Sequence record: PV467749.1
Direction: 5' to 3' (one strand)
Source of the DNA: a phage
DNA: 64,000 nt
Position numbers and translations under genes: made by a program. The notes beneath the pieces are model-generated. The model saw only the letters and a program-made list of their open reading frames with translations. It made no database searches and was not told the origin of the DNA. Each line of letters starts with the position of its first letter. Positions within the stretch are counted from its first letter, which is position 1. Positions 37,935-54,235 of this stretch are shown here, piece by piece.

Positions 37935-37988
37935 GATAAAACTCCTTAATTTAGGAGGGAGAACCATTTCCCCCTCTCTATGTAAAAC

Positions 37989-38016
37989 ATTATACATGAA
38001 TCTAAGTACTATGCAA
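37989..38016 (-). promoter_or_regulatory. sigma70-like early promoter
   Basis: Minus-strand TTGCAT, 16 bp spacer, TATAAT; transcript start context TACAT. Confidence 0.5.
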
Positions 38017-38023
38017 GTACTTT

Positions 38024-38356
38024 TTACATTTTGATACCTGGATTCAGGTAGCGGTGAGATCCATACTCTGGATCGGTTTCGGTCCAGTACTGTAAATCGA
38101 TAGTACCTTTCGCGTTAATCTTGTCTACCAGCTTATTCATCTTAGCGTATACTACATCAGCATCGATGCGTTTAAAGCCAGTGGCTTTAGTGAAGTAGTA
38201 GTGATTTGCTTCACTATCATTCAGGATGTACCGAGAACCGTTTGCCGTTTGTGCGATAATGATTGAGTATTCTACGTTACGGTCGAGGCCGTCGATGAAT
38301 ACAGAGGAAACATTAGTACGGATGAATGCTTTAACGATAGCGATTGAAGTAGTCAT
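38024..38356 (-). CDS. hypothetical protein
   Basis: 110 aa; AGGAG SD. Confidence 0.55.
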   Translation of the reverse strand: MTTSIAIVKAFIRTNVSSVFIDGLDRNVEYSIIIAQTANGSRYILNDSEANHYYFTKATGFKRIDADVVYAKMNKLVDKINAKGTIDLQYWTETDPEYGSHRYLNPGIKM

Positions 38357-38409
38357 TTTGAATCTCCTAACTTTGTGGGCCGTCGCACCATTGCCGCCCT
38401 ACGAGATAC

Positions 38410-38438
38410 ATTATCGCAGTACTGATATACTTTGTCAA
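38410..38438 (-). promoter_or_regulatory. sigma70-like early promoter
   Basis: Minus-strand TTGACA, 17 bp spacer with CAGTACTG, GATAAT. Confidence 0.5.
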
Positions 38439-38560
38439 TACTTTTTTATTAATAGTTTTCACCCCACCAGCAGATAGTTACTCACCGTTATTAACTATAT
38501 ATTTTGGATACACCTATGCACCCTGTGGGCTAGTTTTTGTCTATGCGTATATAATAGCAA

Positions 38561-38584
38561 AGGGACTGACCGGAGTCAATCCCT
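38561..38584. terminator. bidirectional terminator inside repeated intergenic cassette
   Basis: Hairpin AGGGACTGAC-cgga-GTCAATCCCT with T7 on plus and U-rich tail on minus; 3' of gene 38602-38802. Confidence 0.5.
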
Positions 38585-38601
38585 TTTTTTATTCTTTTTT
38601 G

Positions 38602-38802
38602 TTAGATGATTCTCCAATCATCAACGATCATGGTAAGATACCGAACCAGTGATTCGAGTGATTCGTGTTCTCGATAGTCTGCCGCTCCACCAGCGGTACA
38701 AGTACAGCCGATTAAGCCGTTTTGTAGTTCCTGGATCTTTACGTCGATCTGGTTGGCTTTAGCTTCTTTCAGTACTGCAACCAGGGCGATAGCGATAGAC
38801 AT
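38602..38802 (-). CDS. hypothetical small protein
   Basis: 66 aa. Confidence 0.5.
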   Translation of the reverse strand: MSIAIALVAVLKEAKANQIDVKIQELQNGLIGCTCTAGGAADYREHESLESLVRYLTMIVDDWRII

Positions 38803-38892
38803 AATGTTTTACTCCAAACTATTGGCGGGAGAACTATTCCCCCGCTCTATGTAAAACATTATACATTACTGGTTAGTACTGTCAAATAGTTT

Positions 38893-39150
38893 TTATGAAA
38901 TATCTTCGATGTAGTCGGCCCATTTCATTTTTTCAGTACTGTCAATGGCGACCGGATTATTTGGATCAAACCATTCACCATCACCGCAATACATACCCAC
39001 GGCTACGGTTTTATAGCCATCCTGGGCAGTACACCACGACATTGCACGATAGATATGGCCTTTAACTGGTTGCAGTACTGGTAACGTTTTATGGTCTTCT
39101 ACGTAGGCCATAGCTTGTGGATTTACCCGATATTGTGTGAACTGATCCAT
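38893..39150 (-). CDS. hypothetical protein
   Basis: 85 aa. Confidence 0.5.
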   Translation of the reverse strand: MDQFTQYRVNPQAMAYVEDHKTLPVLQPVKGHIYRAMSWCTAQDGYKTVAVGMYCGDGEWFDPNNPVAIDSTEKMKWADYIEDIS

Positions 39151-39226
39151 TATGTTTCCCCTTGTAGTTAGTAAAGTTATTACATCAGTACTATCAAGCT
39201 ATGTCAATAGTACTGAAATAAAACTT

Positions 39227-39451
39227 TTAGATTAGATTATTGAGGCCGTCAATGGTAGACTCACCTTCTTCTTTCTCCCATTGTCGGTAGTACTTCCATG
39301 CTTCATGATAGGTGGCGATTAGTTCATCTTTTTGATCCTGGTTACATGCCAGTACTGAATCACGGTGAGCGGTGTTATAGATAGAATCGAATGATTTCTT
39401 CTCTTCTGCCAGGTTAGCTACTTCCCGCATCAGTTCATCAAAGTTAGCCAT
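39227..39451 (-). CDS. hypothetical small protein
   Basis: 74 aa; promoter and hairpin upstream. Confidence 0.5.
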   Translation of the reverse strand: MANFDELMREVANLAEEKKSFDSIYNTAHRDSVLACNQDQKDELIATYHEAWKYYRQWEKEEGESTIDGLNNLI

Positions 39452-39518
39452 TTTATTACTCCTTTTAGTGGGGGAGGATATCTCCCCCTATGCAAAACAT
39501 TATACTTTGTTTTAGTTA

Positions 39519-39782
39519 TTATGCAAGTACTTTTTTCATATAAACATTAAATTCTACACCGCCGTAACCTTCCACGATGATATGTTTTGCGTTATCACGT
39601 TTGCACATAGTGAAACCGTTGTTGATGTGTTCTGAATTTTCCAGGGCGACATCACCGATAGCGGCACATACAGCACTAATAACAGTATTCCGCAAAGTAC
39701 TGGTATCATTGGCGGTCATAGTAGTTTGCAGTACTACGTTGTCGTATACGTGTGCATTGATAGTGATTTCGATAGTGTTCAT
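39519..39782 (-). CDS. hypothetical protein
   Basis: 87 aa from ATG 39780-39782 (AGGAG SD); track N-terminus MFYIERGKWF is promoter and hairpin sequence. Confidence 0.55.
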   Translation of the reverse strand: MNTIEITINAHVYDNVVLQTTMTANDTSTLRNTVISAVCAAIGDVALENSEHINNGFTMCKRDNAKHIIVEGYGGVEFNVYMKKVLA

Positions 39783-39869
39783 GTTGTATCTCCTGGACTT
39801 GAGGGGAAACCATTTCCCCCTCTCGATATAAAACATTATACGTTAATCTAACTACAATGCAAGTACTTT

Positions 39870-40061
39870 TTAAATTTTATTTCCGATATAGTCCGGCATG
39901 TTCTTTTCAGTCATACGCTTTGCTAATGTCTGCATATGGCTTATAGCGTTCAAGGTGTCTTCCTCCAGGGATGAATCGAGATAATCAGGATCATTCTTCA
40001 CCTTGCAATGATTATGATAGCGTAGTACTGCCAGTACTTTTTTAACTTCTTCAACTGTCAT
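39870..40061 (-). CDS. hypothetical small protein
   Basis: 63 aa; ATGA overlap with upstream gene. Confidence 0.5.
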   Translation of the reverse strand: MTVEEVKKVLAVLRYHNHCKVKNDPDYLDSSLEEDTLNAISHMQTLAKRMTEKNMPDYIGNKI

Positions 40062-40330
40062 AATAAGTACTCCACTTCGTTAGCTTTCAGGTTAGTATCA
40101 ATCATCAATGGTTTTTTGTAGTTCACAAAACGATTAGTTTTTTCGATAGCAAATCCCATATAATCCAGCTTACTAACAGTACATTCATTCTTAAAAACTT
40201 CTTTCGCTGCATCGATGGCTGATTGCATGGATAACCGACCATCTAAATTAATGTTTCCAAATGATCCACCAGCAGAAGTAGGATTACCGTTCATATCTTT
40301 AATGATCATAGTAGCGGAGTAGCTGGACAT
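40058..40330 (-). CDS. hypothetical protein
   Basis: 90 aa; PeSL cassette upstream. Confidence 0.55.
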   Translation of the reverse strand: MSSYSATMIIKDMNGNPTSAGGSFGNINLDGRLSMQSAIDAAKEVFKNECTVSKLDYMGFAIEKTNRFVNYKKPLMIDTNLKANEVEYLL

Positions 40331-40352
40331 AATTTTGTTTCCTTTTATTGGT

Positions 40353-40411
40353 GGGGAGAACTATTCTCCCCTTGATGTAAACTATTATACAGTACTGATA
40401 TACTTTGTCAA
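40353..40411 (-). promoter_or_regulatory. promoter plus stem-loop cassette (PeSL-like)
   Basis: TTGACA 40406-40411, 16 bp spacer, TATAAT 40384-40389, then hairpin GGGGAGA-actat-TCTCCCC 40353-40371. Confidence 0.55.
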
Positions 40412-40417
40412 ATACTT

Positions 40418-40825
40418 TTATTCGCCCATATAGATTAGATTATCATCGCCTACATAGGGATCGCAAACGTTGATTTCTTCGCAGTACTTAGTGAATATAT
40501 CATCATAGTGACCGATATCACGATCCCAAAAACCAGTGCCGTGACCTTCGCGAGTAAGAAAGAGATCATGACCTGCATGACTATAAGTATAATCAGGATT
40601 ATGGTGTTTTTGTACTGTTTCCATATCTTCACCATGTACAGCAAGGAAACGTGAACATGCAATCACTGCCGCTTGATGGGCTTGCTCTGATAATTCATAA
40701 TCTTCCAGGTATTCGCCGTTCTCATTGTGTACTGTACTGAATTGCATAGCTTCAATGTAACCAGCGACCATTGCAGCATGATTTTTATCGTTGGCGATGG
40801 ACCGAGCTTGATTAGTAGTAGTCAT
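40418..40825 (-). CDS. hypothetical protein
   Basis: 135 aa; His-rich motif GHDLFLTREGHGTGFWDRDIGHYDD. Confidence 0.55.
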   Translation of the reverse strand: MTTTNQARSIANDKNHAAMVAGYIEAMQFSTVHNENGEYLEDYELSEQAHQAAVIACSRFLAVHGEDMETVQKHHNPDYTYSHAGHDLFLTREGHGTGFWDRDIGHYDDIFTKYCEEINVCDPYVGDDNLIYMGE

Positions 40826-40846
40826 GATTTTATTCCTTTTAGTATC

Positions 40847-40905
40847 GGGGAGAACTATTCTCCCCTTGATGTAAACTATTATACAGTACTGGTATACTTT
40901 GTCAA
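40847..40905 (-). promoter_or_regulatory. promoter plus stem-loop cassette (PeSL-like)
   Basis: Identical architecture to 40353-40411. Confidence 0.55.
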
Positions 40906-40908
40906 TAC

Positions 40909-41130
40909 TTAATTACGTTTAAAATGATATGTACCTTTATCATCCTGTACGCCCCATACTGATTTACCATTTAAACCAGTGAAGCCGGATTGTAATTCAA
41001 TATGGAAACCATTATTATCAACTACAAAAACTTTTTTATTTTCATCCCGATAGCATTGATATTCTTCACCTGCTTTAAATGCTGCATCATTCAGAAGATT
41101 TGAAGCGTGAACGCAGGTCATAGTAGTCAT
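40909..41130 (-). CDS. hypothetical small protein
   Basis: 73 aa from ATG 41128-41130; track ORF extended through promoter. Confidence 0.5.
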   Translation of the reverse strand: MTTMTCVHASNLLNDAAFKAGEEYQCYRDENKKVFVVDNNGFHIELQSGFTGLNGKSVWGVQDDKGTYHFKRN

Positions 41131-41317
41131 CGTCTTGATTCCTTTTAGTACTAGGGAGAACCATTTCCCCCTCTCGATATAAAACATTATACGCTCATTG
41201 AGATAGTTTGCAAGTACTTTTTTAAAAATAGTTTTCAGTACTGAATACTTATATAATAGATACACTTCCGCACCCTATGGGTCAGTGAGTTATCTCTCAA
41301 TGGATATATAATAGCAA

Positions 41318-41341
41318 AGGGACTGACCGGAGTCAATCCCT
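41318..41341. terminator. bidirectional terminator inside repeated intergenic cassette
   Basis: Same hairpin as 38561-38584, followed by T6; 3' of kinase-like gene. Confidence 0.5.
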
Positions 41342-41354
41342 TTTTTAATCTTTT

Positions 41355-41939
41355 TTATCGTGTTACCTTACTTGCTGCCACATCACGCTTTTTATAGTAC
41401 TGATTCCAGATATTGCAGGTTAAACCGTAATCAAGTACTTTAATAAGGCCATTACGATCCTGGCCGATATTCTGTTTTCTGATATCTCTTATCGTTAGTG
41501 TTGATAATGTATCATCGACGTGTTGTAGTGCATCAGCAAAGCGGTGCTGGCGTTCGATTGCATTACGTTTAATATTGTACTTTAATTCATTGCACGCGTT
41601 TACGTGCTTCACACTACCTTTGCTTGCAGTACTCAACCGATCCATAACGATAAACATATTATCAGGATCGCATAAATGCATATGCACCTTTGCAAAGTAC
41701 TGTTTCAACTGAGGGCGGTCATAGTCTAAAAAATTCCATACCTTACATTCAGTTTCATTTTGTTCTACACCCGCATCACAATTCGCGACCTTAATCACTA
41801 ACCGATCATTTAAAGCGAAAACTATACGGGAAGAACCAGCACCGATGATCTCCAGGCCAGCTAACCGACAAGCTGAAAGGATCTCTTTGTTGGTTTCCAT
41901 TTCTGACAGTGTACGGATGAATTTAGTATAATTACGCAT
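41355..41939 (-). CDS. protein kinase-like protein (minimal ePK/RIO/KdoK-like fold)
   Basis: 194 aa from ATG 41937-41939 (AAGGAG SD); motifs in order IIGAGSSRIVF, VIKV, RDIRKQN, VLDYG. Confidence 0.5.
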   Translation of the reverse strand: MRNYTKFIRTLSEMETNKEILSACRLAGLEIIGAGSSRIVFALNDRLVIKVANCDAGVEQNETECKVWNFLDYDRPQLKQYFAKVHMHLCDPDNMFIVMDRLSTASKGSVKHVNACNELKYNIKRNAIERQHRFADALQHVDDTLSTLTIRDIRKQNIGQDRNGLIKVLDYGLTCNIWNQYYKKRDVAASKVTR

Positions 41940-41970
41940 TGCATGTTCTCCTTGAGTTAATGAAACTATA

Positions 41971-42213
41971 TTACAGTACTTTACTATCAATGGCAACTAC
42001 TTTTTTAACATTAACGGCGTGGATCACTTCCTTCGTGTTTTTAGTACTGAATACTTTCGCCGCTCCTTGTTCGACCGTGATACGATAGCGACCATTAACA
42101 TCAACCATATTAATAAAGTCCGGCGTGCTGAATGGTGTTGTTTTACATTTGAGTACTGTTAACAGTTCCACCAGCGATGTAGTTTCTTTGATACGTTTTT
42201 CTAAAGTAATCAT
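41971..42213 (-). CDS. hypothetical protein
   Basis: 80 aa from ATG 42211-42213; upstream leader duplicated at 42490-42546. Confidence 0.5.
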   Translation of the reverse strand: MITLEKRIKETTSLVELLTVLKCKTTPFSTPDFINMVDVNGRYRITVEQGAAKVFSTKNTKEVIHAVNVKKVVAIDSKVL

Positions 42214-42270
42214 TTTGTTTCCCCCGTGTTGGTATGTACATATAGTACTAAAACATTTGAGTACTGTCAA

Positions 42271-42489
42271 TTAGATAATATTATATTTCTTAAAATAAAA
42301 TGCGTCCTGTGTTGGTTGATACTCAATTCCATTGCCGTTATTGACTTCAACTAATAAACCTTTGTCAATAAGTTTTTTAATAGTACGATACCCTTGTTGA
42401 AAATTGGTAAAATGTGAATCATTACGAAAGGTATAACCGTGCTTAACTGCTTCATCAATAGTTTTCTTTTCGATTTTAGATAATTTCAT
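42271..42489 (-). CDS. hypothetical small protein
   Basis: 72 aa from ATG 42487-42489; promoter TTGACA-17-TACTAT upstream. Confidence 0.5.
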   Translation of the reverse strand: MKLSKIEKKTIDEAVKHGYTFRNDSHFTNFQQGYRTIKKLIDKGLLVEVNNGNGIEYQPTQDAFYFKKYNII

Positions 42490-42542
42490 TTTGTTTCTCC
42501 CGTGTTGGTATGTGTACATAGTACTAAAACATTTGAGTACTG

Positions 42543-42797
42543 TCAACGTGATATTAGTTTTATTTTCTTATTGTATTGTTGATGCTCATAAAGGTTTATC
42601 TTTCCTGTGTTCTCGATTACTATCCTGTTGTTAGTGTCCACGTCGATTACACGCAGTTTCCCGTTGCTTAACTTCCTAGGTAATAGGTTACCATTAATAA
42701 ACTCATTAGCAAGCTGTACGGCCTTTGTGATGATTCTCTGAGGTGCTTTATAGTGTACCCGTAAGATGTTATCTTTATATAGTTGAACCTTAATCAT
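42543..42797 (-). CDS. hypothetical protein
   Basis: 84 aa. Confidence 0.5.
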   Translation of the reverse strand: MIKVQLYKDNILRVHYKAPQRIITKAVQLANEFINGNLLPRKLSNGKLRVIDVDTNNRIVIENTGKINLYEHQQYNKKIKLISR

Positions 42798-42804
42798 TTT
42801 GTTT

Positions 42805-42836
42805 GTCCGATAAAAAAGGCGGGAACTGATCCCGCC
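42805..42836 (-). terminator. intrinsic terminator
   Basis: Hairpin GGCGGGA-actga-TCCCGCC 42818-42836 with U-run on minus RNA; 3' of gene 42859-43254. Confidence 0.55.
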
Positions 42837-42858
42837 GTGTTGTTAGTACTGCAAGTTA

Positions 42859-43254
42859 TTAGATAACCTGGCGGCGTTTACTGTATACTGTTACACGATT
42901 ACCCTTACGATCATGTCGGATCTCTTTCTGGTTGCGAATCAGTTCACTTGGACGCTTAAGGTTTGCCAGGTGATCCGCGTGAGTCCATGCGGTGTGGTTT
43001 ACCTGTACTTTGATATCAGAATCAGCGATAAACTCATCTTGTGCGTCAAGTATTGCCGCCAGCATATCCGCTCGTTTTAGTTCTGCTGCTGTCAGTACTG
43101 GCTCAGGTGAATTCACAATATCAGAGATTTCTTTGAACTGTACGGCCCAGCGTTGACCTTTCGGTGCATCTTTGCCCATGTCTTTAAATGCTGCTCCTTC
43201 CTCGCGTGCAACAATACGGGCAGCTTCACGGGTAGCGTAGAATTTAGTAATCAT
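42859..43254 (-). CDS. hypothetical protein, paralog of 54841-55107
   Basis: 131 aa; shared N-terminal YFATRE.AR..AR..GA.FKDMG and C-terminal DRKGNRVTVY. Confidence 0.55.
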   Translation of the reverse strand: MITKFYATREAARIVAREEGAAFKDMGKDAPKGQRWAVQFKEISDIVNSPEPVLTAAELKRADMLAAILDAQDEFIADSDIKVQVNHTAWTHADHLANLKRPSELIRNQKEIRHDRKGNRVTVYSKRRQVI

Positions 43255-43349
43255 GGTATACATCCTATTAGTTAAGTTAGTACTACAAGTTAGAGTCTAT
43301 TATAAAGTACTATCTGGACAGTGTCAAATAGTACTTTAAATGGATTCTA

Positions 43350-43673
43350 TTACATGTCTTTCTTACGTTTTACATCGTGGTAGCGAACTGTAATTTCTTT
43401 GTTGATCTCTTCCTCGATGCGGTGAATAACTTTTTCTTTCGGGTTGAAACCTATAACGGTTTCTTTAATGATCTCCAAGCCCGTGTATTCGCCTTGTGTA
43501 CCGTAACCGTATGTAAAGGTTTCGTGTCCCAGGTCTTCCCAGCGATCACCAATCAATGCGGACACGTAGCAGGAGTGGTAAGTATTGCCGTGGCTATCAG
43601 TCCACCGATTAACTTTAATGTCAAAGGAGGTTACAATTTTCAGTTCTACTTTCTGGGTAAGGATCATAGCCAT
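43350..43673 (-). CDS. hypothetical protein, paralog of 49861-50184
   Basis: 107 aa; shared RWTDS.GNTYHSC.VS and TYGY; C-terminal VKRKKD. Confidence 0.55.
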   Translation of the reverse strand: MAMILTQKVELKIVTSFDIKVNRWTDSHGNTYHSCYVSALIGDRWEDLGHETFTYGYGTQGEYTGLEIIKETVIGFNPKEKVIHRIEEEINKEITVRYHDVKRKKDM

Positions 43674-43696
43674 TTTTATTTCTCTCTCTTTGTTAG

Positions 43697-43757
43697 GAGG
43701 GGAACCATTCCCCTCGCTTGATGTAAACTATTATACAGTACTAAGATACTTTGTCAA
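43697..43757 (-). promoter_or_regulatory. promoter plus stem-loop cassette (PeSL-like)
   Basis: TTGACA 43752-43757, TATAAT 43730-43735, hairpin GAGGGGAA-cca-TTCCCCTC 43697-43715. Confidence 0.55.
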
Positions 43758-43760
43758 TAC

Positions 43761-43943
43761 TTATTTTTTGGAAAGTTTACGCATTAATTCTACGCTTTCT
43801 TGTGAACGTTTTGCTACCTGGCAAGCTGTATGGGCAGTAAACATTTTTGTATAGTCTGACGCTTTGCCACCGAACCGAGCGGCACGTTCACGGGCACTTG
43901 GAACTAATACTATTTCTTTCTTGCAGATAGTGCACTTAGCCAT
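43761..43943 (-). CDS. hypothetical small protein
   Basis: 60 aa; cysteines CTIC and C at 40. Confidence 0.45.
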   Translation of the reverse strand: MAKCTICKKEIVLVPSARERAARFGGKASDYTKMFTAHTACQVAKRSQESVELMRKLSKK

Positions 43944-43966
43944 TTTTATTTCTCTCTTTTAGTTAG

Positions 43967-44026
43967 GAGGGGAACCATTCCCCCTCTCGATGTAAACTAT
44001 TATACAGTACTAAGATACTTTGTCAA
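43967..44026 (-). promoter_or_regulatory. promoter plus stem-loop cassette (PeSL-like)
   Basis: Near-duplicate of 43697-43757. Confidence 0.55.
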
Positions 44027-44029
44027 TAC

Positions 44030-44305
44030 TTAAGTATTGTAAATGTCGTGAATAGTGATAAAGTTTTTACGACCGTAAACATGTAAATCAGTATCAATGT
44101 AGTGCTTATCAAGTACATCATCGACGCTTAAAGACGTGTCGTGAATATCTTCATAAAATTGTGGATCAACAATCGTGCTTAAGTCATCTGGCGTTAACTT
44201 ATCGTTAAGGCATTGAACCGCCTGGATATCTGCTTCACGTTTCCATTGTTCCAGATTAGTAGTCAGTACTTGCTCGATTTCGTTAGCTGTAAGTAAAGTC
44301 CGCAT
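44030..44305 (-). CDS. hypothetical protein
   Basis: 91 aa. Confidence 0.5.
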   Translation of the reverse strand: MRTLLTANEIEQVLTTNLEQWKREADIQAVQCLNDKLTPDDLSTIVDPQFYEDIHDTSLSVDDVLDKHYIDTDLHVYGRKNFITIHDIYNT

Positions 44306-44374
44306 TTTAATGTTTCCTTATCAGTGGTTGATGTAAGTATTATACTCGTTTACTTTCTATTGTCAAACTATTTT

Positions 44375-44447
44375 ATCAGGGGAGTTTTTCGTATGTCTTA
44401 CTCCTGGACTACTTAACGGGGTTACTTATTTCGTTCCCCGTCCTGAT
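44375..44447 (-). ncRNA. candidate structured RNA element between tandem promoters (copy 1)
   Basis: 73 nt, outer stem ATCAGG/CCTGAT, inner hairpin CGGGG..CCCCG; second copy at 54161-54235 with compensatory stem changes. Confidence 0.3.
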
Positions 44448-44582
44448 GTAAAACATTATACTTGATTCTAAGTACAATGCAAGTACTTTTTAAAAATAGT
44501 TTTCAGTACTAGCCACCAGTAAACAATAGATACATTTATGCACCCGGTGGGCTGATTTGTTTCTATGCGTATATAATAGCAA

Positions 44583-44606
44583 AGGGACTGACCGGAGTCA
44601 ATCCCT
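44583..44606. terminator. bidirectional terminator inside repeated intergenic cassette
   Basis: Same hairpin as 38561-38584, T5 follows. Confidence 0.5.
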
Positions 44607-44619
44607 TTTTCAATTATTT

Positions 44620-44769
44620 TTAAACTTCTTTCGGGTTGCGATATGTGATAGCGTTCGGGTACATTTGTTTAATGTTATTCCATGCCTGGTTAACATTATA
44701 ACCACTTGATCGAATCAGTTGGTTATTACCGACACCTTGAAACACTACTTCAAATAAGAATTCTTTCAT
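44620..44769 (-). CDS. hypothetical small protein (below ORF-track cutoff)
   Basis: 49 aa ORF read by hand (MKEFLFEVVFQGVGNNQ...); ATGA overlap with stop of upstream gene. Confidence 0.35.
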   Translation of the reverse strand: MKEFLFEVVFQGVGNNQLIRSSGYNVNQAWNNIKQMYPNAITYRNPKEV

Positions 44770-44939
44770 GCTTTCACCTCGCTATCTGCTTTGCCTTTAC
44801 GCCAGGCCGTTGCTAATTGTTCGCGTTGCCATAAGTCGAGTGATACGTAAAGTTTTGCATTATCACCCTTCGGATATTCGCCAGTAGTACCAATCCGATA
44901 AAACAGATCTTTCAGTACTGTTAATTCTACCTGGACCAT
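44766..44939 (-). CDS. hypothetical small protein
   Basis: 57 aa from ATG 44937-44939; track ORF extended through promoter. Confidence 0.45.
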   Translation of the reverse strand: MVQVELTVLKDLFYRIGTTGEYPKGDNAKLYVSLDLWQREQLATAWRKGKADSEVKA

Positions 44940-45026
44940 TATACTTTCCTCTTTGTTCGGAGGGGAACTATTCCCCTTCCGATATAAAACATTATACACT
45001 TTATTCAGTACTGTGCAAGTACTTTT

Positions 45027-45239
45027 TTAATCTTTCAGCCAATGATCCTGAATGAATTTTTCACCGGAACCTTGCTGCATTGATTGTAACAGACGTTCGC
45101 GATGAGCGGCGGCGAATTGCTCAGTACTATGCGTTACACCTGGTTGATATCTGGATTCACCATTGGGGGCGATGTATTGTACATCCCACGGTTTTTCGTT
45201 AGTATCAGACCATTTACGAACGATTAGTTGACCTTGCAT
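45027..45239 (-). CDS. hypothetical small protein
   Basis: 70 aa; PeSL cassette upstream. Confidence 0.5.
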   Translation of the reverse strand: MQGQLIVRKWSDTNEKPWDVQYIAPNGESRYQPGVTHSTEQFAAAHRERLLQSMQQGSGEKFIQDHWLKD

Positions 45240-45324
45240 TTTTCTTTCCTCTTAGTGGGGAGAATCATTTCTCCCCTTCATGTAAACTATTATACAGTAC
45301 TATAATCTATTGTCCAGTACTTTT

Positions 45325-45513
45325 TTACAGTTTATGAATCAATTCTTTATCTAAGCGATAGCGTACATTATTAATGGTAACAGCATTATTTTTAATGCTA
45401 CGCTGTACGGGTCCACCAGCAATAACAAACGTTGCTTTATTGCCCCGAACAATGATAGCACTTCCAGGATTACCGAAATCATCTTGTACTAAAATACTTG
45501 ATAAGTTTTCCAT
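45325..45513 (-). CDS. hypothetical small protein
   Basis: 62 aa; promoter and GGGGAA..TTCCCC hairpin upstream. Confidence 0.5.
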   Translation of the reverse strand: MENLSSILVQDDFGNPGSAIIVRGNKATFVIAGGPVQRSIKNNAVTINNVRYRLDKELIHKL

Positions 45514-45591
45514 TTTTATTTCCTCTTAGTAGGGGAAGATGTTTCCCCTTGATGCAAGTACTATAACAGTACTGAAAACTAAATGCAAGTA

Positions 45592-45948
45592 CTATGATAA
45601 AATCATGATAGGATATTCACTATCGATCAGTACCTCGAATCCGAATCCTTCGTACCATTCTTTAAGATTAAAGGCGTTATCTTCTCCCGTATCGCATTCT
45701 AAGATGATACAATCTGAATCATCGGCGGCATCGATAAAGGCATTCATTAATTCGTTACCTTCACCATTGCCCCGACTATCAGGATCAACATAAAGAGAAT
45801 CAATAAACGCTACACGGTCATAATCAAGATCCGGTGCAATGATTCCACGTTTAACAAACCAGTACTGCAATTGTGCTACTTTGCCCTGTACTTGATAACC
45901 AGTGATCTCGCCATTGTCAGTAGTACGCGTGATATGTTGTATTCCCAT
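45592..45948 (-). CDS. GNAT-family acetyltransferase-like protein
   Basis: 118 aa; motif A-like VDPDSRGNGEGNELMNAF and C-terminal EGFGFEV. Confidence 0.5.
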   Translation of the reverse strand: MGIQHITRTTDNGEITGYQVQGKVAQLQYWFVKRGIIAPDLDYDRVAFIDSLYVDPDSRGNGEGNELMNAFIDAADDSDCIILECDTGEDNAFNLKEWYEGFGFEVLIDSEYPIMILS

Positions 45949-46011
45949 GATTTCAATCCTCAGTTAAGATATAAAACATTATACACTACTGGATAGTACT
46001 GTCAATACTTT

Positions 46012-46269
46012 TTATCTCATAGATCTATGCCAACAATTACGCGGATCTCTTTTAAAAGTACTATCATGATCCTCCTGGCAAGTAATACAATACATGCACC
46101 CTATAACGGCCTGGCGTCGATTCTCAGGGATTTTATCGCCGCAGTCGAGGCAATGTACTAGTGATTCTCTTTGTGCGTTAATTTGCTTTCTAGCGTGGTT
46201 AACGGCGGCCTGAATCACTGCGTTAATCTCGTCTTGCTCGGCCCCATCTTTCGCGAATCCTACTGCCAT
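46012..46269 (-). CDS. TraR/DksA-family C4 zinc-finger protein
   Basis: 85 aa; CLDCGDKIPENRRQAVIGCMYCITCQE matches C-x2-CG-x2-IP-x2-RR and C-x2-CQ. Confidence 0.6.
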   Translation of the reverse strand: MAVGFAKDGAEQDEINAVIQAAVNHARKQINAQRESLVHCLDCGDKIPENRRQAVIGCMYCITCQEDHDSTFKRDPRNCWHRSMR

Positions 46270-46430
46270 TATTTTAACCTCATTATAAAAATACTATAGT
46301 ACTGTAATGCTACAATAATACTACTAGTGTTTATCTTATTCAAACCATATGATACTACATATCCACCAGCATTACCACGGATAGTAACGCCTTTGTACTG
46401 TCTATATAAATTCAACTGCGTATATTGCCT

Positions 46431-46503
46431 TTGATCAAGAATTGATCAGAATTATACTCCTTATGCTAAATTGATCCAGTACTTTTTTGATCATTTATTG
46501 ATC
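46431..46503. repeat. GATC / TGATCA cluster
   Basis: Five GATC sites within 73 bp inside a 290-bp non-coding leader. Confidence 0.5.
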
Positions 46504-46605
46504 GATATTATATAGTTACATTTGTGCACCCTATGGGTTAGTGACGTTCTCGTCTTGATGTAAGTATTATGCCAGTACTGGCATTGTATGTCAACAATTA
46601 TTTTC

Positions 46606-46643
46606 AAAAAAAGAAAAAGCCCACCAGCGTTAACCAGTGGGCT
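46606..46643 (-). terminator. intrinsic terminator
   Basis: Hairpin AGCCCAC..GTGGGCT 46618-46643 with long U-rich tail on minus RNA. Confidence 0.45.
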
Positions 46644-46649
46644 ATAATC

Positions 46650-46793
46650 TTACATCTTGCGGATAATCTTAACAGTATCTTTCACCGATTTACCGTTTTG
46701 CTGACATTGCTCGATCATTGCGTATTGTTCTGCGGTCAGATCCTCGCCAGTTTTTGCCAGTACTGCATCGATGAATGAATCCAGTGCGATCAT
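46650..46793 (-). CDS. hypothetical small protein (below ORF-track cutoff)
   Basis: 47 aa ORF read by hand (MIALDSFIDAVLAKTGEDL...), terminator immediately 3'. Confidence 0.4.
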   Translation of the reverse strand: MIALDSFIDAVLAKTGEDLTAEQYAMIEQCQQNGKSVKDTVKIIRKM

Positions 46794-46884
46794 TTTGTTT
46801 CTCTCTTATGTTAAGTTAACTACTGTTTATAAAACTTATTATACAGTACTATCAAACTATGTCAATAGTACTGGTAATATATTT

Positions 46885-47097
46885 TTAGTTAATGATAGTC
46901 AGTGTAAAATTGTAATCACCTGCCTGGTATAGTACTTTGTCGCCGAACGTTCCAACACGTTTCATATTGCAATAGATACCCATAACACTTTTTACATCTT
47001 TGATATTCCGAACGCCAGTAATATCCTTGTTTAAATGATCGTGATCAGAAAATAAAACTTGTTTTGCATTTTTCAGTACAGTGCAGATATTAGCCAT
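46885..47097 (-). CDS. hypothetical small protein
   Basis: 70 aa; PeSL cassette upstream. Confidence 0.5.
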   Translation of the reverse strand: MANICTVLKNAKQVLFSDHDHLNKDITGVRNIKDVKSVMGIYCNMKRVGTFGDKVLYQAGDYNFTLTIIN

Positions 47098-47193
47098 TTT
47101 GTTTTCTCTCTCTGTTAGTGGGGAGAAGTTTTTCTCCCCTTGATGTAAACTATTATACAGTACTATAATCTATTGTCAAACTATTTTTTTATA

Positions 47194-47535
47194 TTATTCG
47201 AAATCTTCTGGACCGGACTGATAATCATCTTCACCGCATGCACTTTCTAACGTTTCACCAGTGTAGTCATCAGTTAGTGAGTCATCCTCATAGTTCACGT
47301 CTACGCCAGTGATGTAAAACTGGCTATCGTCTGGATCATTGAAATTAATTTTTTGGATGTTTACAATAACTGTATTGATACCCAGGACACCGCCATCAGC
47401 CGTTACAAAGTACTGATATTTTTCACAACCGCCTGAATTGAAACCGTAATTAATTTCGGCCCGACCATCATTTAAACGCAGTGCCTGGGCGATGATTTCA
47501 TTTTCAAAGTTAGATTGAGCAATTGAGATAGTCAT
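47194..47535 (-). CDS. hypothetical acidic protein
   Basis: 113 aa; strongly acidic C-terminus. Confidence 0.5.
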   Translation of the reverse strand: MTISIAQSNFENEIIAQALRLNDGRAEINYGFNSGGCEKYQYFVTADGGVLGINTVIVNIQKINFNDPDDSQFYITGVDVNYEDDSLTDDYTGETLESACGEDDYQSGPEDFE

Positions 47536-47617
47536 GATTTGTTTCCTTATTACCAGGGGAAACCGTTTCCCCTTTCGATGTAAAACATTATACGCTTATC
47601 AGGAAGTAATGCAAGTA

Positions 47618-48085
47618 CTATTTCACGTTAATTTCAAAGTACTGCTCTTTGATGTTTTCCTGTTGGTAAATCTCGTTTAATGCTTTAAGATCTAAAACCT
47701 GTTTACCTGCTGCCTGAATATACTTTTTAAGAGTCGCTAACAGCTTCTCAGGCGTGTTTGTAGTCTTACGTGTTGGGATCTTATCGTGCCCCATAGCGTA
47801 ATACTGCTTACGTGCTATAGTACTGATAACACTGCGGTACGGTTCCATGATCAGCTTGTCTGTGTATTCGTCGCTATCCCCAAACTTCATACCGTGGATC
47901 GCAAAGGTCATCATCATGCGGTCGTTATCGCGGATATTGTGGGGGCAGTCGGCAAGCTCGCGAGTCAGTGACATAGTGATCCCCACGTCGCCACCCAGCG
48001 GTAAAGGTCGGGCGATAAAGAAACCGTTAGGGAATACTTTCAGGAAGTTTTCTTGAACTGCTGCGACGAATTCGATGCTATTCAT
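47618..48085 (-). CDS. hypothetical protein
   Basis: 155 aa; PeSL cassette upstream. Confidence 0.55.
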   Translation of the reverse strand: MNSIEFVAAVQENFLKVFPNGFFIARPLPLGGDVGITMSLTRELADCPHNIRDNDRMMMTFAIHGMKFGDSDEYTDKLIMEPYRSVISTIARKQYYAMGHDKIPTRKTTNTPEKLLATLKKYIQAAGKQVLDLKALNEIYQQENIKEQYFEINVK

Positions 48086-48300
48086 AATTCATTTCCTTAA
48101 TTAGTGGGGGAAACCGTTTCCCCTTTCGATGTAAAACATTATACGCCTATTGAGATAGTTTGCAAGTACTTTTTAAAAATAGTTTTCAGTACTCAATACT
48201 TATATAATAGATACACTTCCGCACCCTGTGGGCTAGTGAGCTATCTCTCAATGAATATATAATAGCAAAATGGCTGACCGAAGTCAACCACTTTTTTCAT

Positions 48301-48435
48301 TTATTTTTTAGCTTTAAGTACTGCGGCCTTTCGCGTCATGCCTTGCTTGATGTACTCCTTTACTTTCGCTTTTTTAGCGTTTACCTTGTCTGCTTTCGTT
48401 TTAGGAGTACTGTAAATTATACCGTTAGGATTCAT
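48301..48435 (-). CDS. hypothetical small basic protein (below ORF-track cutoff)
   Basis: 44 aa Lys-rich ORF read by hand; start overlaps stop of 48436-48525. Confidence 0.35.
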   Translation of the reverse strand: MNPNGIIYSTPKTKADKVNAKKAKVKEYIKQGMTRKAAVLKAKK

Positions 48436-48525
48436 TTAAATCACCATAAAGAATAGATAGGTTACTAACAATGCCGCGATCAATGCACCGACCAGGGCCG
48501 AACTATAGTAAGCTAATGATTTCAT
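48436..48525 (-). CDS. hypothetical hydrophobic peptide
   Basis: 29 aa (MKSLAYYSSALVGALIAALLVTYLFFMVI); ATGA overlap with upstream gene. Confidence 0.3.
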   Translation of the reverse strand: MKSLAYYSSALVGALIAALLVTYLFFMVI

Positions 48526-48674
48526 TTTTTAGCCTGAAAATAATGTTTAATTTGAGCGGCGGTCAGTGCACAATTACGCAGGAAGTTTTCTGTATAACTT
48601 TTGCGAGTACTGAAAGAGAATTGACCTTTGCCGTTACCGATAGTAACATCAAACCGAGCGTTGTATTGTTTCAT
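48522..48674 (-). CDS. hypothetical small protein
   Basis: 50 aa from ATG 48672-48674 (AGGAG SD); first gene of a coupled trio. Confidence 0.45.
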   Translation of the reverse strand: MKQYNARFDVTIGNGKGQFSFSTRKSYTENFLRNCALTAAQIKHYFQAKK

Positions 48675-48755
48675 TTTGATTCTCCTGTTATTGGGGAGAA
48701 TCATTTCTCCCCTCTATGTAAAACATTATACGCGTTTAAAAACTAATTACAAGTA

Positions 48756-48902
48756 CTATTTTTTAGATTTACGCAAACTTTCTACCATCTCAGGAGTAAG
48801 GCCCGGCGGGTAGGAAACTACTTCATCAACGAAACGTAATGGGAATACCCCATCTAAGGTTGAACGTGCTTTCTTGTTAGTACTCTTTTTTGATGCTTTC
48901 AT
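48756..48902 (-). CDS. hypothetical small protein (below ORF-track cutoff)
   Basis: 48 aa ORF read by hand; PeSL cassette upstream. Confidence 0.4.
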   Translation of the reverse strand: MKASKKSTNKKARSTLDGVFPLRFVDEVVSYPPGLTPEMVESLRKSKK

Positions 48903-48971
48903 TTCATATTCCTTAATTAGTGGGGAGAATCATTTCTCCCCTTCATGTAAAACATTATACGCGTTTAAAAA

Positions 48972-49181
48972 CTAATTACAAGTACTATTTGAAAGTAAAT
49001 GCTCATACGCTGCATTAACTACGTTTTCAATAACCGACTGTACAGAAAGATCCCCCACGTCCTGGCTATAGTAGAAATTGCTTACAGTGGTGTCATCGTA
49101 TGCAAATACTTTACCAGGTACGGCATCAATCACATACATATTAACCTTTAAGATGTCGATCTTATCCTGTACAGTAAGCAT
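48972..49181 (-). CDS. hypothetical small protein
   Basis: 69 aa. Confidence 0.5.
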   Translation of the reverse strand: MLTVQDKIDILKVNMYVIDAVPGKVFAYDDTTVSNFYYSQDVGDLSVQSVIENVVNAAYEHLLSNSTCN

Positions 49182-49186
49182 ATTAA

Positions 49187-49459
49187 TTACCCTTTTAAGT
49201 ACTGGATTAAGTAGTCTTGTTGATCTTCGGTGATTGCCGCCATCTTCCCTAGTACTGGATTAATGATATAATCCCCGGTAACGTCCTGTAACGCATTCTC
49301 AGGCGGTGAAACGGCTGGGGTAGCCATAGCCATCGCCTGGACTTGTTCGACGCTGTATCGCTCATATAGGCGGCATTCTTCCGGTGTTAACATAGCATCA
49401 GTACGCTTCATCGGTTTAATGATGCTTTCGATCTCATTCAGTACTTGATTAACGTTCAT
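49187..49459 (-). CDS. hypothetical protein
   Basis: 90 aa. Confidence 0.5.
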   Translation of the reverse strand: MNVNQVLNEIESIIKPMKRTDAMLTPEECRLYERYSVEQVQAMAMATPAVSPPENALQDVTGDYIINPVLGKMAAITEDQQDYLIQYLKG

Positions 49460-49510
49460 GGTATAATCCCCAATATAAGCGGCCTGAATCGACCGCTAAC
49501 GATGTTTTGA

Positions 49511-49780
49511 TTAATAGGTGTATGGTTGACGCTCAAACAATGATTGCACGTTGTACGCCCCGCTTATGGGCTTCGCTGGTAAATCAATTTTATATTGTTC
49601 ACGCTTAAAGATAATAAAACGGCAATTGTTTTTAACATCAAAATTGATTGAACGTTCCAGGAGTTTTCCATCGTGCACAAATACAAGATAACCGCTTGCT
49701 ACTTGTTTTGTAGTACTGGTTGCAACCATAGACCGCCGAACATGTGTACCTGCGTCGATTAAAGTACTGATATTTTTCAT
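49511..49780 (-). CDS. hypothetical protein
   Basis: 89 aa. Confidence 0.5.
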   Translation of the reverse strand: MKNISTLIDAGTHVRRSMVATSTTKQVASGYLVFVHDGKLLERSINFDVKNNCRFIIFKREQYKIDLPAKPISGAYNVQSLFERQPYTY

Positions 49781-49860
49781 TATACGATCCTCTTAAGTTA
49801 ATTTAATTTCTTTCCCCTATGCAGACACTATATCAAAGTATCTGCATAAAGTAAAGCTAA

Positions 49861-50184
49861 TTAAAGATCTTTTTTGCGTTTAACATTCTGTACAGTACAA
49901 TGCAACGGGATATTAAGATCATTGCACAAACGAGTAAGGGAGGTTTCATCAGTATTAAGCCCGTCTACTGATTCCTTTAAGAGAGATAACGCCGTTTGTT
50001 GATATGCATCTTCATAGCCATAAGTAAATGATTCAACCGCCAGATCATTCAAACCGTTATCCAGTTCAACGCTTACATGACAAGAATGATAAGTATTGCC
50101 ATATGAATCAGTCCAACGTTTACCGTCAACATTGATTGCACGGATTGCAGCCAGGGAAACGGTGTTAATGATAGTTTTAGCCAT
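49861..50184 (-). CDS. hypothetical protein, paralog of 43350-43673
   Basis: 107 aa; shared RWTDSYGNTYHSCHVS and TYGY motifs. Confidence 0.55.
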   Translation of the reverse strand: MAKTIINTVSLAAIRAINVDGKRWTDSYGNTYHSCHVSVELDNGLNDLAVESFTYGYEDAYQQTALSLLKESVDGLNTDETSLTRLCNDLNIPLHCTVQNVKRKKDL

Positions 50185-50273
50185 TTTTGTATTCCTTAAA
50201 TTAATATGTTGTCTTGATAAAATCTATTATGCCAGTACTATCAAACTATGTCAATAGTACTGTGATAATATTT

Positions 50274-50417
50274 TTACTTACTTTTTGCTTTCTTTGCTGC
50301 TTCCACCTGGTCGGCCCATTCTTTACCCCATACTTGTAAATTATAATGGTACTGGCAAAGAGCAACGCCCCGCTTTAAACCAGTAATAGATTTCTGACCA
50401 CATTGACAAGTTTTCAT
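50274..50417 (-). CDS. hypothetical small Cys-containing protein (below ORF-track cutoff)
   Basis: 47 aa ORF read by hand (MKTCQCGQKS...); PeSL cassette upstream. Confidence 0.4.
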   Translation of the reverse strand: MKTCQCGQKSITGLKRGVALCQYHYNLQVWGKEWADQVEAAKKAKSK

Positions 50418-50502
50418 TTTAGTTTCCTTGTAGTGGGGAGAACCATTTCTCCCCTTGATGTAATGTATTATACTTTATTCGATTTACTTTGCAAGTACTT
50501 TT

Positions 50503-50730
50503 TTAATTTAATTCATCAAGGCAAAGGATACGCTCAACGCCCAAATCAGTTAAACTAATCGACGGCACTTGATAGGTTTCAATGTATGCTACACTTGCCC
50601 ACTGACCGAACTCATTAACGGCCCAGGTATTCATTGCATTTTGCAATTCCGCACCTTCCTTGTTGGTAATGACTGCAACTACTTGTTCGTTGCCAGTAGT
50701 ACCAGATACGCGAGTAATGATAATAGCCAT
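50503..50730 (-). CDS. hypothetical small protein
   Basis: 75 aa from ATG 50728-50730; track ORF extended through promoter. Confidence 0.5.
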   Translation of the reverse strand: MAIIITRVSGTTGNEQVVAVITNKEGAELQNAMNTWAVNEFGQWASVAYIETYQVPSISLTDLGVERILCLDELN

Positions 50731-50962
50731 TGTTTTGATTCCTTTGATTTTGAAGGAGAACCGTTTCCCCCTCTCGATGTAAAACATTATACGCTAATCT
50801 CTTAATCGTGCAAGTACTTTTTATTACTTTTTGCAAAATACTTTAAACGCTCTCAATCGCGTTCTTACAGCCTTAACGCCACCAGCTAGGGCAATGCATC
50901 AGATAATCAGTTTAATGCGTTAGAATCGTTTCTAGGCGGTGCTGGTGGCCTGGTAAACGATA

Positions 50963-50994
50963 AACACAAAAAAGCCCACCGTTTAAGGTGGGCT
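50963..50994 (-). terminator. intrinsic terminator
   Basis: Hairpin AGCCCACC-gtttaa-GGTGGGCT 50973-50994, U-run on minus RNA, 3' of gene 51016-51498. Confidence 0.6.
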
Positions 50995-51015
50995 AGTGAT
51001 TCAGTACTTTAATTG

Positions 51016-51498
51016 TTATGCTTCAACTTTGCGATGAGCTTCGATCCATTCCTCGCGAGTCATACCACTGGAGTTAATCGCGTCCAGTACTACCGCAATA
51101 CAGTTACCACGCACCGGAATCAGATATTCTTCCCCGTTGTCCAGTACTACCGCTACGCGTTCCTGAATCCATTTTTTGGCTTTTACTTCTGGCTTGTCTT
51201 CCCCATACTTAACCGCCAGGGCTTTTTGTGCCATCTCTGTAACTACTTCCAGATCCAATCCAACTACTGCCGCCTGAATACTTTCGATTGTTGCTTGTAG
51301 TTCTGCTTCACGGGCCGCCTTTGCCGCTTCAATTTCTGCCGCTTTATTTGCTTGTAGTTCTTTCGCAGTACTGTACGCGATGTTAAAATTATTGCGTACC
51401 GCTTTCATGGTATCGTTATCCAGTTCAGCCAGGATCTCAGCCGCTACGTTAGTTTCATTTGCTACCAGTGCTTTGATGAATGATTTTACATTAGCCAT
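51016..51498 (-). CDS. hypothetical Ala/Glu-rich protein
   Basis: 160 aa from ATG 51496-51498 (AGGA SD); promoter TTGACA-16-TAGAAT upstream. Confidence 0.55.
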   Translation of the reverse strand: MANVKSFIKALVANETNVAAEILAELDNDTMKAVRNNFNIAYSTAKELQANKAAEIEAAKAAREAELQATIESIQAAVVGLDLEVVTEMAQKALAVKYGEDKPEVKAKKWIQERVAVVLDNGEEYLIPVRGNCIAVVLDAINSSGMTREEWIEAHRKVEA

Positions 51499-51697
51499 TT
51501 TATAAATCCTCAATTAAAGTTTAGTTTACGTTTATTAGTGTATCAAAGTTTTCTCGACGTGTCCAGTTTTTCGTTCGACTTACTGGCGGTCTACTTAGTG
51601 CTCCCCGTCTTGATGTAATACATTCTACGCTTTTCTGCGGTAATGTCAACTACTTTCTTAAAACTATTTTCAAAGTATCTCAGTACTACGATACTAC

Positions 51698-51724
51698 AAA
51701 AACAAAAAAGCCCACCAGGTGGGC
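51698..51724 (-). terminator. intrinsic terminator
   Basis: Hairpin AGCCCACC..GGTGGGCT 51708-51724 with U-run on minus RNA, 3' of gene 51732-51962. Confidence 0.55.
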
Positions 51725-51731
51725 TATGTAC

Positions 51732-51962
51732 TTAATCAGTGAGTAAAATATTAAACACTTTACCATTTAACGTTATTGGTGCACTGCTACCAGGCTCAAG
51801 ATCCGTTAATATACCTGCAATCGCTTTATCATTGGCGACCTTTCCAGTGTCCAACAGTACTACAGTACTGATAAGATTAACGCTCGTTTCAATATCATAA
51901 TGCACGGCGTTAAGTAGTTGTGTAGTACTGCTTTCGTTAAGTAAAACAATTCGCTTAGTCAT
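51732..51962 (-). CDS. hypothetical small protein
   Basis: 76 aa. Confidence 0.5.
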   Translation of the reverse strand: MTKRIVLLNESSTTQLLNAVHYDIETSVNLISTVVLLDTGKVANDKAIAGILTDLEPGSSAPITLNGKVFNILLTD

Positions 51963-51983
51963 GATGTTACCCCGTAGTATCTA

Positions 51984-52283: not shown

Positions 52284-52389
52284 TTGATTATCCTTAGTTA
52301 CCAGGGGAACCGCTCCCCTATGCAAAACATTATACGCGTTTAAAAACTAATTGCAAGTATTTTAATAAAAAGTATTTGAAAAATAATTG

Positions 52390-52418: not shown

Positions 52419-52499
52419 TACTACATCAAGACGAAACAGTCACTAACCCACCGGGTGCCGAGATCCGTCTATTAAATGATTCAGTACTGAAAAAGTAAC

Positions 52500-54160: not shown

Positions 54161-54235
54161 ATCAGGGGAGTTTTTCGTGTGCCTTACTCCTGGGCTACTT
54201 AACGGGAAGTTACTTATTTCGTTCCCCGTCCTGAT
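54161..54235 (-). ncRNA. candidate structured RNA element between tandem promoters (copy 2)
   Basis: 75 nt duplicate of 44375-44447; inner stem CGGGAA..TTCCCG replaces CGGGG..CCCCG. Confidence 0.3.

Follow-up and report, generated by a model that had tools for sequence, protein, structure and literature searches.

Few promoter regions are used as widely in molecular biology as the early region A1-A2-A3 of phage T7. The 5'-terminal stabiliser hairpins of bacterial and phage mRNAs, such as that of the ompA leader, need no conserved loop sequence. In phage HK022, by comparison, an early sigma70 transcript begins with putL, an RNA of ~70 nt that folds into two stem-loops and requires no phage protein (PMC9378689). 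T4-type phages carry PeSL (promoter-early stem-loop) elements, in which strong sigma70-like early promoters, repeated and combined with G-rich/C-rich stem-loops, lie on either side of small orphan genes and favour their modular shuffling; each stem-loop precedes the promoter and acts as a terminator (PMC2839356).

We analysed a stretch of phage DNA of 64,000 nucleotides (record PV467749.1, hereafter the window), whose relatives are Escherichia jumbo phages of ~350 kb in the genus Asteriusvirus (PBECO4, 121Q, phAPEC6 and others, at 92-98% identity). Its minus strand holds, at ~37.9-57.2 kb, an array of small ORFs with a sigma70-type promoter 5' of each. TATAAT-N7-ATC followed by purines is shared by 29 of these promoters (37975-57186, minus strand), where 0.36 would be expected by chance, and the spacing and first transcribed bases of this family are those of the T7 A1 type (AUCGAGAGGG; TATAAT-N7-ATCRRRR). 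The annotated start of T7 A1 is the A of ATCGAGAGGGA, and by analogy the array transcripts would start at the A of ATCGAG or ATCAGG; promoter use, start sites and the existence of the RNA discussed below are predictions from the DNA. Most of the 29 promoters have a short G-rich/C-rich hairpin in the 5' UTR and then a ribosome-binding site, and this hairpin covaries across the array (GGGGAGAA..UUCUCCCC, GGGGAAAC..GUUUCCCC and GCGGGAAC..UUCCCGC).

Copies of the element in the early promoter array

An earlier note on this DNA had described two copies of a ~75-nt element with an outer stem ATCAGG/CCTGAT, each between an upstream (P1) and a downstream (P2) minus-strand promoter. Sequence comparison bears this out (copies A and B, Table 1): the copies are near-identical, the outer stem is found in both, both have the two flanking promoters, and P2 is a perfect consensus in both. 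The two copies differ by 3 substitutions, all in loop 2 or the junction, and by 2 nt in length, and the repeat exceeds the element itself, since the alignment spans ~190 nt and takes in P2, the element, and P1 with its A/T-rich tract. P1 of copy A went unlisted by a simple promoter scan because its TTGCAT matches 3/6 positions. When both copies were folded, as the note had proposed, the minus-strand RNA gave the expected three-way junction (z = -3.2 and -2.0), and the plus strand folded worse. The P1 transcript of copy A is predicted, from the annotated start of T7 A1, to begin at the first A of the element (44447). The statement that the element is not a tRNA also holds, as ARAGORN reports neither tRNA nor tmRNA genes in the whole window.

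Two parts of that description need to be revised. Copies A and B are real, but "duplicated" understates their number, as the window has three copies. Copy C is a short form whose promoter lies directly downstream of an intrinsic terminator (51725-51709). For the loop motif TAAGNCNNAYGAAMAAC the window gives exactly 3 matches where 0.16 would be expected, and covariance searches of the window return the same three copies A, B and C. To say that the element is inserted between tandem promoters is misleading, because P1-motif-P2 recurs as a unit, which is the arrangement of A1 and A2 in T7.

Table 1. Coordinates of the three copies, their promoters and the ORFs downstream (window positions; all on the minus strand)
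Copy	Feature	Position	Strand	Details
A	P1	44455..44482	-	TTGCAT-16-TATAAT, A/T-rich tract upstream; member of the 29-promoter family
A	Element, long form	44375..44447	-	73 nt; fold and covariance matches
A	Outer helix	44447-44442 with 44380-44375	-	AUCAGG with CCUGAU
A	Hairpin 1	about 44441-44415	-	ACGGGG/CCCCGU
A	Junction		-	UAAGUAGUCCA
A	Hairpin 2	44404-44381	-	GGAGU/ACUCC, loop AAGACAUACGAAAA
A	P2	44339..44366	-	TTGACA-16-TATAAT, 12/12
A	ORF, putatively driven by P2	44305-44030	-	91 aa (phrog_14947)
B	P1	54243..54270	-	TTGCAA-16-TATAAT
B	Element, long form	54161..54235	-	75 nt; architecture as in copy A
B	Hairpin 1, 3' arm		-	CUUCCCG, giving a G.U and an A-U pair
B	Loop 2		-	AAGGCACACGAAAA
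B	P2	54125..54152	-	TTGACA-16-TATAAT, 12/12
B	ORF, putatively driven by P2	54092-53481	-	203 aa (phrog_5162)
C	Promoter	51622..51649	-	TTGACA-16-TAGAAT
C	Element, short form	51553..51614	-	lacks hairpin 1; missed in the earlier note
C	Closing helix	51609-51606 with 51559-51556	-	GACG with CGUC
C	Junction		-	CUAAGUAGACCG
C	Hairpin 2	51586-51563	-	CCAGU/ACUGG, loop AAGUCGAACGAAAA
C	Putative P2-like promoter, weak	51546-51518	-	TTGATA-17-TAAACT, as read from the sequence
C	ORF 3' of the element	51498-51016	-	160 aa

Several other features of the window were recorded alongside these copies. The leader of the 160-aa ORF has AAACUUUAAUUGAGGA just 5' of the start codon (minus strand, 51505-51525), which we take to resemble the translational enhancer and ribosome-binding site of the T7 gene 10 leader; AACUUUAAGAGGA stands at the equivalent position in a fragment of a Munch/7t3-like jumbo phage (L051). 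A 93-nt unit occurs four times (38507-38599, 41264-41356, 44529-44621 and 48215-48307). On the minus strand it contains a 12-bp terminator hairpin (AAAGGGATTGACTCCGGTCAGTCCCTTT) overlapped by a promoter-like TTGACT-17-TATTAT with a TG extension, followed by a conserved box (GCCCACNGGGTGC), and it may serve as a regulatory site or be transcribed as a small unit of its own. On the plus strand, at 54317-54345 and 52390-52418, extended -10 promoters close to consensus (TTGACA-17-CATAAT with TG) oppose the minus-strand array, possibly as sources of antisense transcripts or small RNAs. Downstream of the first of them (54317) comes a CCCACCGGGTGCA box, the same as in the 93-nt unit but in opposite orientation. 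The non-coding run at 56671-56822 consists of ~19 imperfect 8-bp units (CCGTCTAG / CCATCCAG / CCGTTTAG) and looks like iterons or a protein-binding array; its neighbourhood is inside the direct terminal repeat in some related records. Outside the early region, families of direct repeats of 100-200 nt spaced 340-590 nt apart (D7, D10 and D14-D18, at 15.1-21.8, 27.0-30.9 and 32.6-35.4 kb) suggest arrays of small paralogous genes.

Counterparts in T7 and other phages

When IMG/VR was scanned with the two conserved single-stranded pieces, the stems being left free, T7-like contigs were returned, and a slightly relaxed pattern gave 53 loci, nearly all of them from podophages (contigs of 37-45 kb). 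The T7 reference record has the motif, as ccggggtcaaccggATAAGTAGACAGCCTGATAAGTCGCACGAAAAACAGGtaTTGACA, in the interval between its annotated A1 (498) and A2 (626) promoters, and in phiYeO3-12 it is flanked by the annotated putative A1 and A2. A blastn search with the T7 A1-A2 region matched 493 records; the motif, a piece of ~48 nt, is the best-conserved stretch of the region in these T7-like genomes and all that aligns in the distant ones. A covariance model made from T7-like sequences only, which had been retrieved with a pattern from the window motif whose stems were N or outside the pattern, finds exactly the three window copies (E = 4.9e-6, 1.6e-4 and 2.4e-3; next match 0.63), with copy C as its best match. 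Hairpin 1, WUAAGUAG and hairpin 2 with the loop UAAGnCnnAYGAAMAAC, the parts by which the T7-type A1-A2 motif is recognised, are all present, and so is its location between two sigma70-type early promoters and downstream of an A1-like start, the P2 of copy C being weak. The jumbo phage fragment L051 likewise has P1, a three-way junction and P2; its helices all differ in sequence (CGGGG/CCCCG, GAUAAC/GUUAUC and GUCAG/CUGAC), and its junction and loop 2 are kept. We therefore consider it very probable that the element is a conserved structured RNA motif equivalent to that between A1 and A2 of T7.

The element was found at 103 places in 45 phage records. Every Asteriusvirus examined has two long-form copies, or four where the region falls in the terminal repeat. 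The element is also present in a few Justusliebigvirus (muut, outra and EmilieFrey), in A7_1 and A5-4, whose records give Vequintavirinae only, and in two further Vequintavirinae, A73 and W70. All these records keep the order P1-element-P2, with different P1 variants and downstream genes. Among these long-form copies the stems are invariant and loop 1 is 12-16 nt long. Informative variants emerged when ~250 kb of early regions from related phages were searched by nhmmer and with a covariance model. In a copy of EJP2 hairpin 2 is GGUGU/ACACC, an A-U to U-A swap. The short form has the hairpin 2 CCAGU/ACUGG and lacks hairpin 1, and its closing helix is GACG/CGUC in the window and UCAGG..CG/CG..CCUGG in phage Turkey5.

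A first IMG/VR scan with a long-form pattern found 121Q only, and a metagenome scan anchored on P2 found the element in 6 of 14 loci, all Asteriusvirus-like, the other 8 being unrelated chance matches. A pattern match in a 74-kb contig (L063) lacked the promoter context and was taken as chance, and a scan of GTDB genomes gave no match. The copies of CMSTMSU (MH494197) were left out, as that record has many indels; at 11497-11598 and 22164-22258 it shows several single-base deletions relative to all other Asteriusvirus genomes, which are probably assembly errors, and it is flagged UNVERIFIED_ORG.

Gene order places the same P1-motif-P2 block upstream of at least 5 different genes in three phage lineages, an arrangement compatible with shuffling, and the motif appears to travel with early-gene cassettes by recombination. 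The 91-aa gene of phrog_14947 (window 44030-44305) also lies 3' of the element in the unrelated Justusliebigvirus muut (2171-2446), where the nucleotide sequence matches that of the window around the start codon, and whole promoter-leader-gene cassettes seem to move between phage families.

Conservation of pairing

The earlier note had argued for a functional RNA structure from what it saw as a compensatory change between the inner hairpins of copies A and B. This argument is wrong: the 5' arm CGGGGAA is the same in both and only the 3' arm differs, CCCCG vs CUUCCCG. Compared with its closest relatives (CUCCCCG), copy B has a single C-to-U, which turns a G-C pair into G.U. The difference in hairpin 1 is one-sided (an indel, or a C-to-U giving G.U), with no double substitution. 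The conclusion of a functional RNA structure is nevertheless supported. The search for further copies that the note had suggested did reveal real compensatory changes, which are seen only once diverged copies are added; they affect both hairpins and are seen in T7-like phages as well as in other jumbo phages.

Each homologue, folded alone, forms hairpin 1 and hairpin 2, or in the short form hairpin 2 without hairpin 1; the folding energy of this short form is unexceptional (z = -0.3 and -0.6). Covariation was scored on a sequence-only MAFFT alignment of 35 distinct sequences with a two-hairpin model. In this alignment 88.8% of the cells pair, compared with 78.5% in column shuffles (0/500 reach it), 7 of the 9 pairs change on both sides (2/500 shuffles), and the covariation score is 0.261 vs 0.110, figures which derive from a handful of diverged lineages rather than from independent events. 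The T7-like sequences by themselves are 98.5% paired (0/500 shuffles reach it), with 4 pairs that change on both sides. Relatedness can by itself let sequences outscore their shuffles, with no structure involved, so that the slid controls, which pair 17-45%, and the number of distinct stem versions are more persuasive. Covariation of helix 1 in a model-fitted alignment (A4) was not used, as the short forms were fitted there in two registers.

The stem versions are numerous. Hairpin 2 is built as CCUG/CAGG (the T7 stem), CUUG/CAAG, GUCAG/CUGAC, GGAG/CUCC, GGUG/CACC or CCAG/CUGG, with the same loop in all, and hairpin 1 as CCGG/CCGG, CCAG/CUGG, CCUGG/CCAGG, ACCCG/CGGGU, GAUAAC/GUUAUC or ACGGGG/CCCCGU, while the closing helix has four different sequences. 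The parts that are kept are unpaired, namely the junction UAAGUAG and the loop of hairpin 2. In the helices of the T7-like sequences, G.U occurs 11 times vs once for A.C, and therefore the pairing is read on the strand transcribed from A1/P1.

Candidate functions and comparison with known systems

There is good support for the view that the element is a transcribed spacer and that P1-motif-P2 is a module of tandem early promoters, and the core of the element (hairpin 1, UAAGUAG and hairpin 2) is common to T7 relatives, Rak2-like jumbo phages, Justusliebigvirus and two Vequintavirinae. In the mechanism that we propose, host sigma70 RNA polymerase would start at P1 and produce an RNA whose first six bases, AUCAGG, would pair with CCUGAU ~70 nt downstream and close a three-way junction with the two hairpins. 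The motif would act as RNA and in cis, carried by transcripts of the upstream promoter only, those from P2 lacking it. In the jumbo-phage forms, the buried 5' end may guard the P1 transcript against 5'-end-dependent decay, and the two conserved unpaired motifs on their covarying stems may give a component of the host a place to dock. A partner from the host is likelier because very different coliphage lineages share the motif, and the candidate we favour is the RNA polymerase engaged in transcription, or else a factor for termination or decay. As an outcome, transcription or RNA derived from P1 would differ in fate, i.e., in processivity or stability, from that derived from P2. The downstream proteins are without known function and differ between copies, so that autoregulation by the downstream product is unlikely.

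This specific mode of action, a cis-acting leader RNA that engages a host factor, is offered tentatively, as the foremost of several candidates none of which is individually probable. Averaged with the much firmer identification of the motif, our best explanation as a whole stands slightly on the favourable side of an even chance. It is a more speculative thought that a short structured RNA, transcribed from the first early promoter, is common to T7-like podophages and Rak2-like jumbo myophages and docks on a host machine without the help of a phage protein; that machine would be RNA polymerase, Rho or the RNA-decay apparatus, reprogrammed by an RNA of a new put-like or decoy class. After the cis-acting leader, we rank the other readings in the order of a put-like modifier, a trans-acting decoy, a plain stabiliser, a DNA-level element of P2 and a relic.

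A put-like RNA would stay, as a nascent two-hairpin structure, on its polymerase and suppress pausing or termination, so that P1-initiated polymerases alone would read through terminators or Rho sites further downstream. We hold this to be unlikely, although the element has the architecture of putL (PMC9378689), although its presence in unrelated coliphages makes a host target likely, and although the three window copies all open transcription units just after terminators. Our models R1 and R2 find no match in HK022 20,000-34,000, the early region that by gene order should hold the put sites (best E = 0.32, partial), and the short stems and large loops seen here contrast with the long bulged stems of put. 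Moreover, T7 transcripts from A2 and A3 lack the motif, and copy C serves a single-gene unit ending at a terminator (50994-50973), for which read-through is not obviously needed. Somewhat less probable is a small RNA acting in trans, in which a short RNA, abundantly made from P1, would tie up an RNA-binding factor of the host in early infection; its 3' end might come from processing within the A/U-rich stretch, or form where the polymerase runs into another sitting on the consensus P2. The compact stable fold and protected 5' end would suit such a decoy, as would the UAAGUA-like motif repeated in loop 1, junction and loop 2, and the structure of A and B, by its coordinates, ends ~9 nt upstream of the perfect-consensus -35 hexamer of P2. 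But no terminator follows the element, no 3' end is definable, and E. coli genomes give no match for a target or mimic. We give a similarly low chance to a generic 5' stabiliser, whose structure would only bury the 5' end, as the hairpins of the other 26 promoters may, and whose loops would have no partner. Hairpin 1 does stand exactly at the standard 5' hairpin site with the same GGGGAA start, and the outer helix begins at the predicted +1; however, such a stabiliser leaves unexplained why loop and junction are near-invariant across T7-like and jumbo phages while the stems change, and the T7 motif lies behind a separate 5' hairpin.

A further reading is at the DNA level, where the A-tract and its flanks would form an UP element, a curvature signal or a factor site for P2, and the hairpins would be incidental. 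The motif is always just upstream of a second promoter, and GAAAAACAGG of T7 lies at about -47 to -38 of A2, presumably the position of the proximal UP subsite, given the UP consensus. In the T7-like phages, the A-rich end of loop 2 together with the 3' arm overlaps this UP-element position, and part of the sequence conservation could thus lie in the DNA. As an account of the whole element it is improbable, because the stem sequences vary freely yet stay complementary and G.U is tolerated where A.C is not. In addition, the distance from hairpin 2 to the -35 hexamer of P2 (about 2, 16 and 22-30 nt) differs by non-integral helical turns, and this variable spacing argues against a fixed-phase DNA site. 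The element might finally be a relic, the leftover 5' UTR (a hairpin and a Shine-Dalgarno-like AGGAG) of a cassette deleted by recombination between repeated promoters and kept along with P2. A standard 5' UTR gives a weak alignment with the element (E = 0.27), and the small ORFs of the region, flanked by promoters, form a recombining array that resembles the PeSL cassettes of T4-type phages. Yet the element is conserved with compensatory changes in Autographiviridae, Rak2-like jumbo phages, Justusliebigvirus and Vequintavirinae, and AGGAG gives way to CCAG or CCUG in other copies, so that we find this origin very hard to credit.

Known RNA families and sites were also compared. Rfam 15 gives no gathering-level match in the window, with only chance-level ones (E >= 1.6) at 44300-44520, and nothing at E <= 1 in the T7 A1-A3 region. 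There is no terminator-like site inside A or B and no U-tract, which sets aside an intrinsic terminator or attenuator, and a PeSL cassette does not fit either, as the hairpins here are transcribed, coming after the -10 hexamer, and lack a U-tract. The lambda nut or rrn-type boxA (GCTCTTTAACAA) has only chance-level matches with 2 mismatches in the window, on the plus strand and outside the early array; an rrn-type boxA of this sequence is present in the early leader of T7 (514-525) and of a T7-like contig (L031, about 1725-1737), downstream of the last tandem promoter. A small ORF in the element was rejected, the transcribed strand having no start codon; the plus-strand ATG of copy A opens 7 codons, and copy B has GTG there with a different sequence after it. 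CsrA-type sites were dismissed since the GGA triplets are in stems and are lost in other copies, and T7 primase sites in the loop of hairpin 1 are not conserved. No E. coli genome match was found for a host homologue or a long complementarity, in a search insensitive to short pairings. The literature yielded no published name, function or description of the motif, although older T7 papers might mention it, and no transcriptome of Asteriusvirus or Justusliebigvirus. The element is thus apparently the local version of an RNA motif undescribed in Rfam 15 or the searchable literature.

If an RNA that docks on a host machine is indeed made there, the classic T7 A1-A2-A3 region would contain an unrecognised functional element. 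A conserved RNA structure backed by covariation, which this region has in common with 350-kb jumbo phages, would make the spacers of tandem early promoters functional and not filler. The motif would be a candidate for how phages handle their first transcripts differently, by stability, polymerase processivity or host-factor titration. It is also an example of small regulatory modules exchanged between otherwise unrelated phage lineages. For annotation, it offers a searchable motif that marks early transcription units in coliphages.

Among described systems, putL and putR of HK022, cis-acting antiterminator RNAs that bind the beta' zinc-binding domain and prevent termination with no need of protein factors, are similar to the motif in size (~70 nt), in having two stem-loops and in their place at the start of an early phage transcript made by host polymerase, but differ in that no sequence or structure similarity is detectable and in that the motif has short stems with loops of 12-17 nt. 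The early array has the same general look as the PeSL cassettes, and no described system parallels the whole array more closely, whereas the motif is set apart from PeSL by its conserved loops and its two promoters. Stabilisers of the ompA type are likewise similar in that structure begins at or a few bases from the 5' end, but the loops and junction of the motif are kept across distant phages. The T7 A1-A2 spacer (about nt 536-590) is alike in far more respects: it has two sigma70 promoters 115-130 bp apart, first transcribed bases of the A1 type (AUCGAG/AUCAGG), and then in the same order a hairpin, WUAAGUAG, a second hairpin with the loop UAAGnCnnAYGAAMAAC and a second promoter. T7-like genomes have one copy and the window three, the stem sequences differing throughout. 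The T7 motif is found further in, 38-90 nt from the 5' end; a separate 5' hairpin precedes it and the 5' end does not close it, whereas in the window the first transcribed bases would themselves close the three-way junction.
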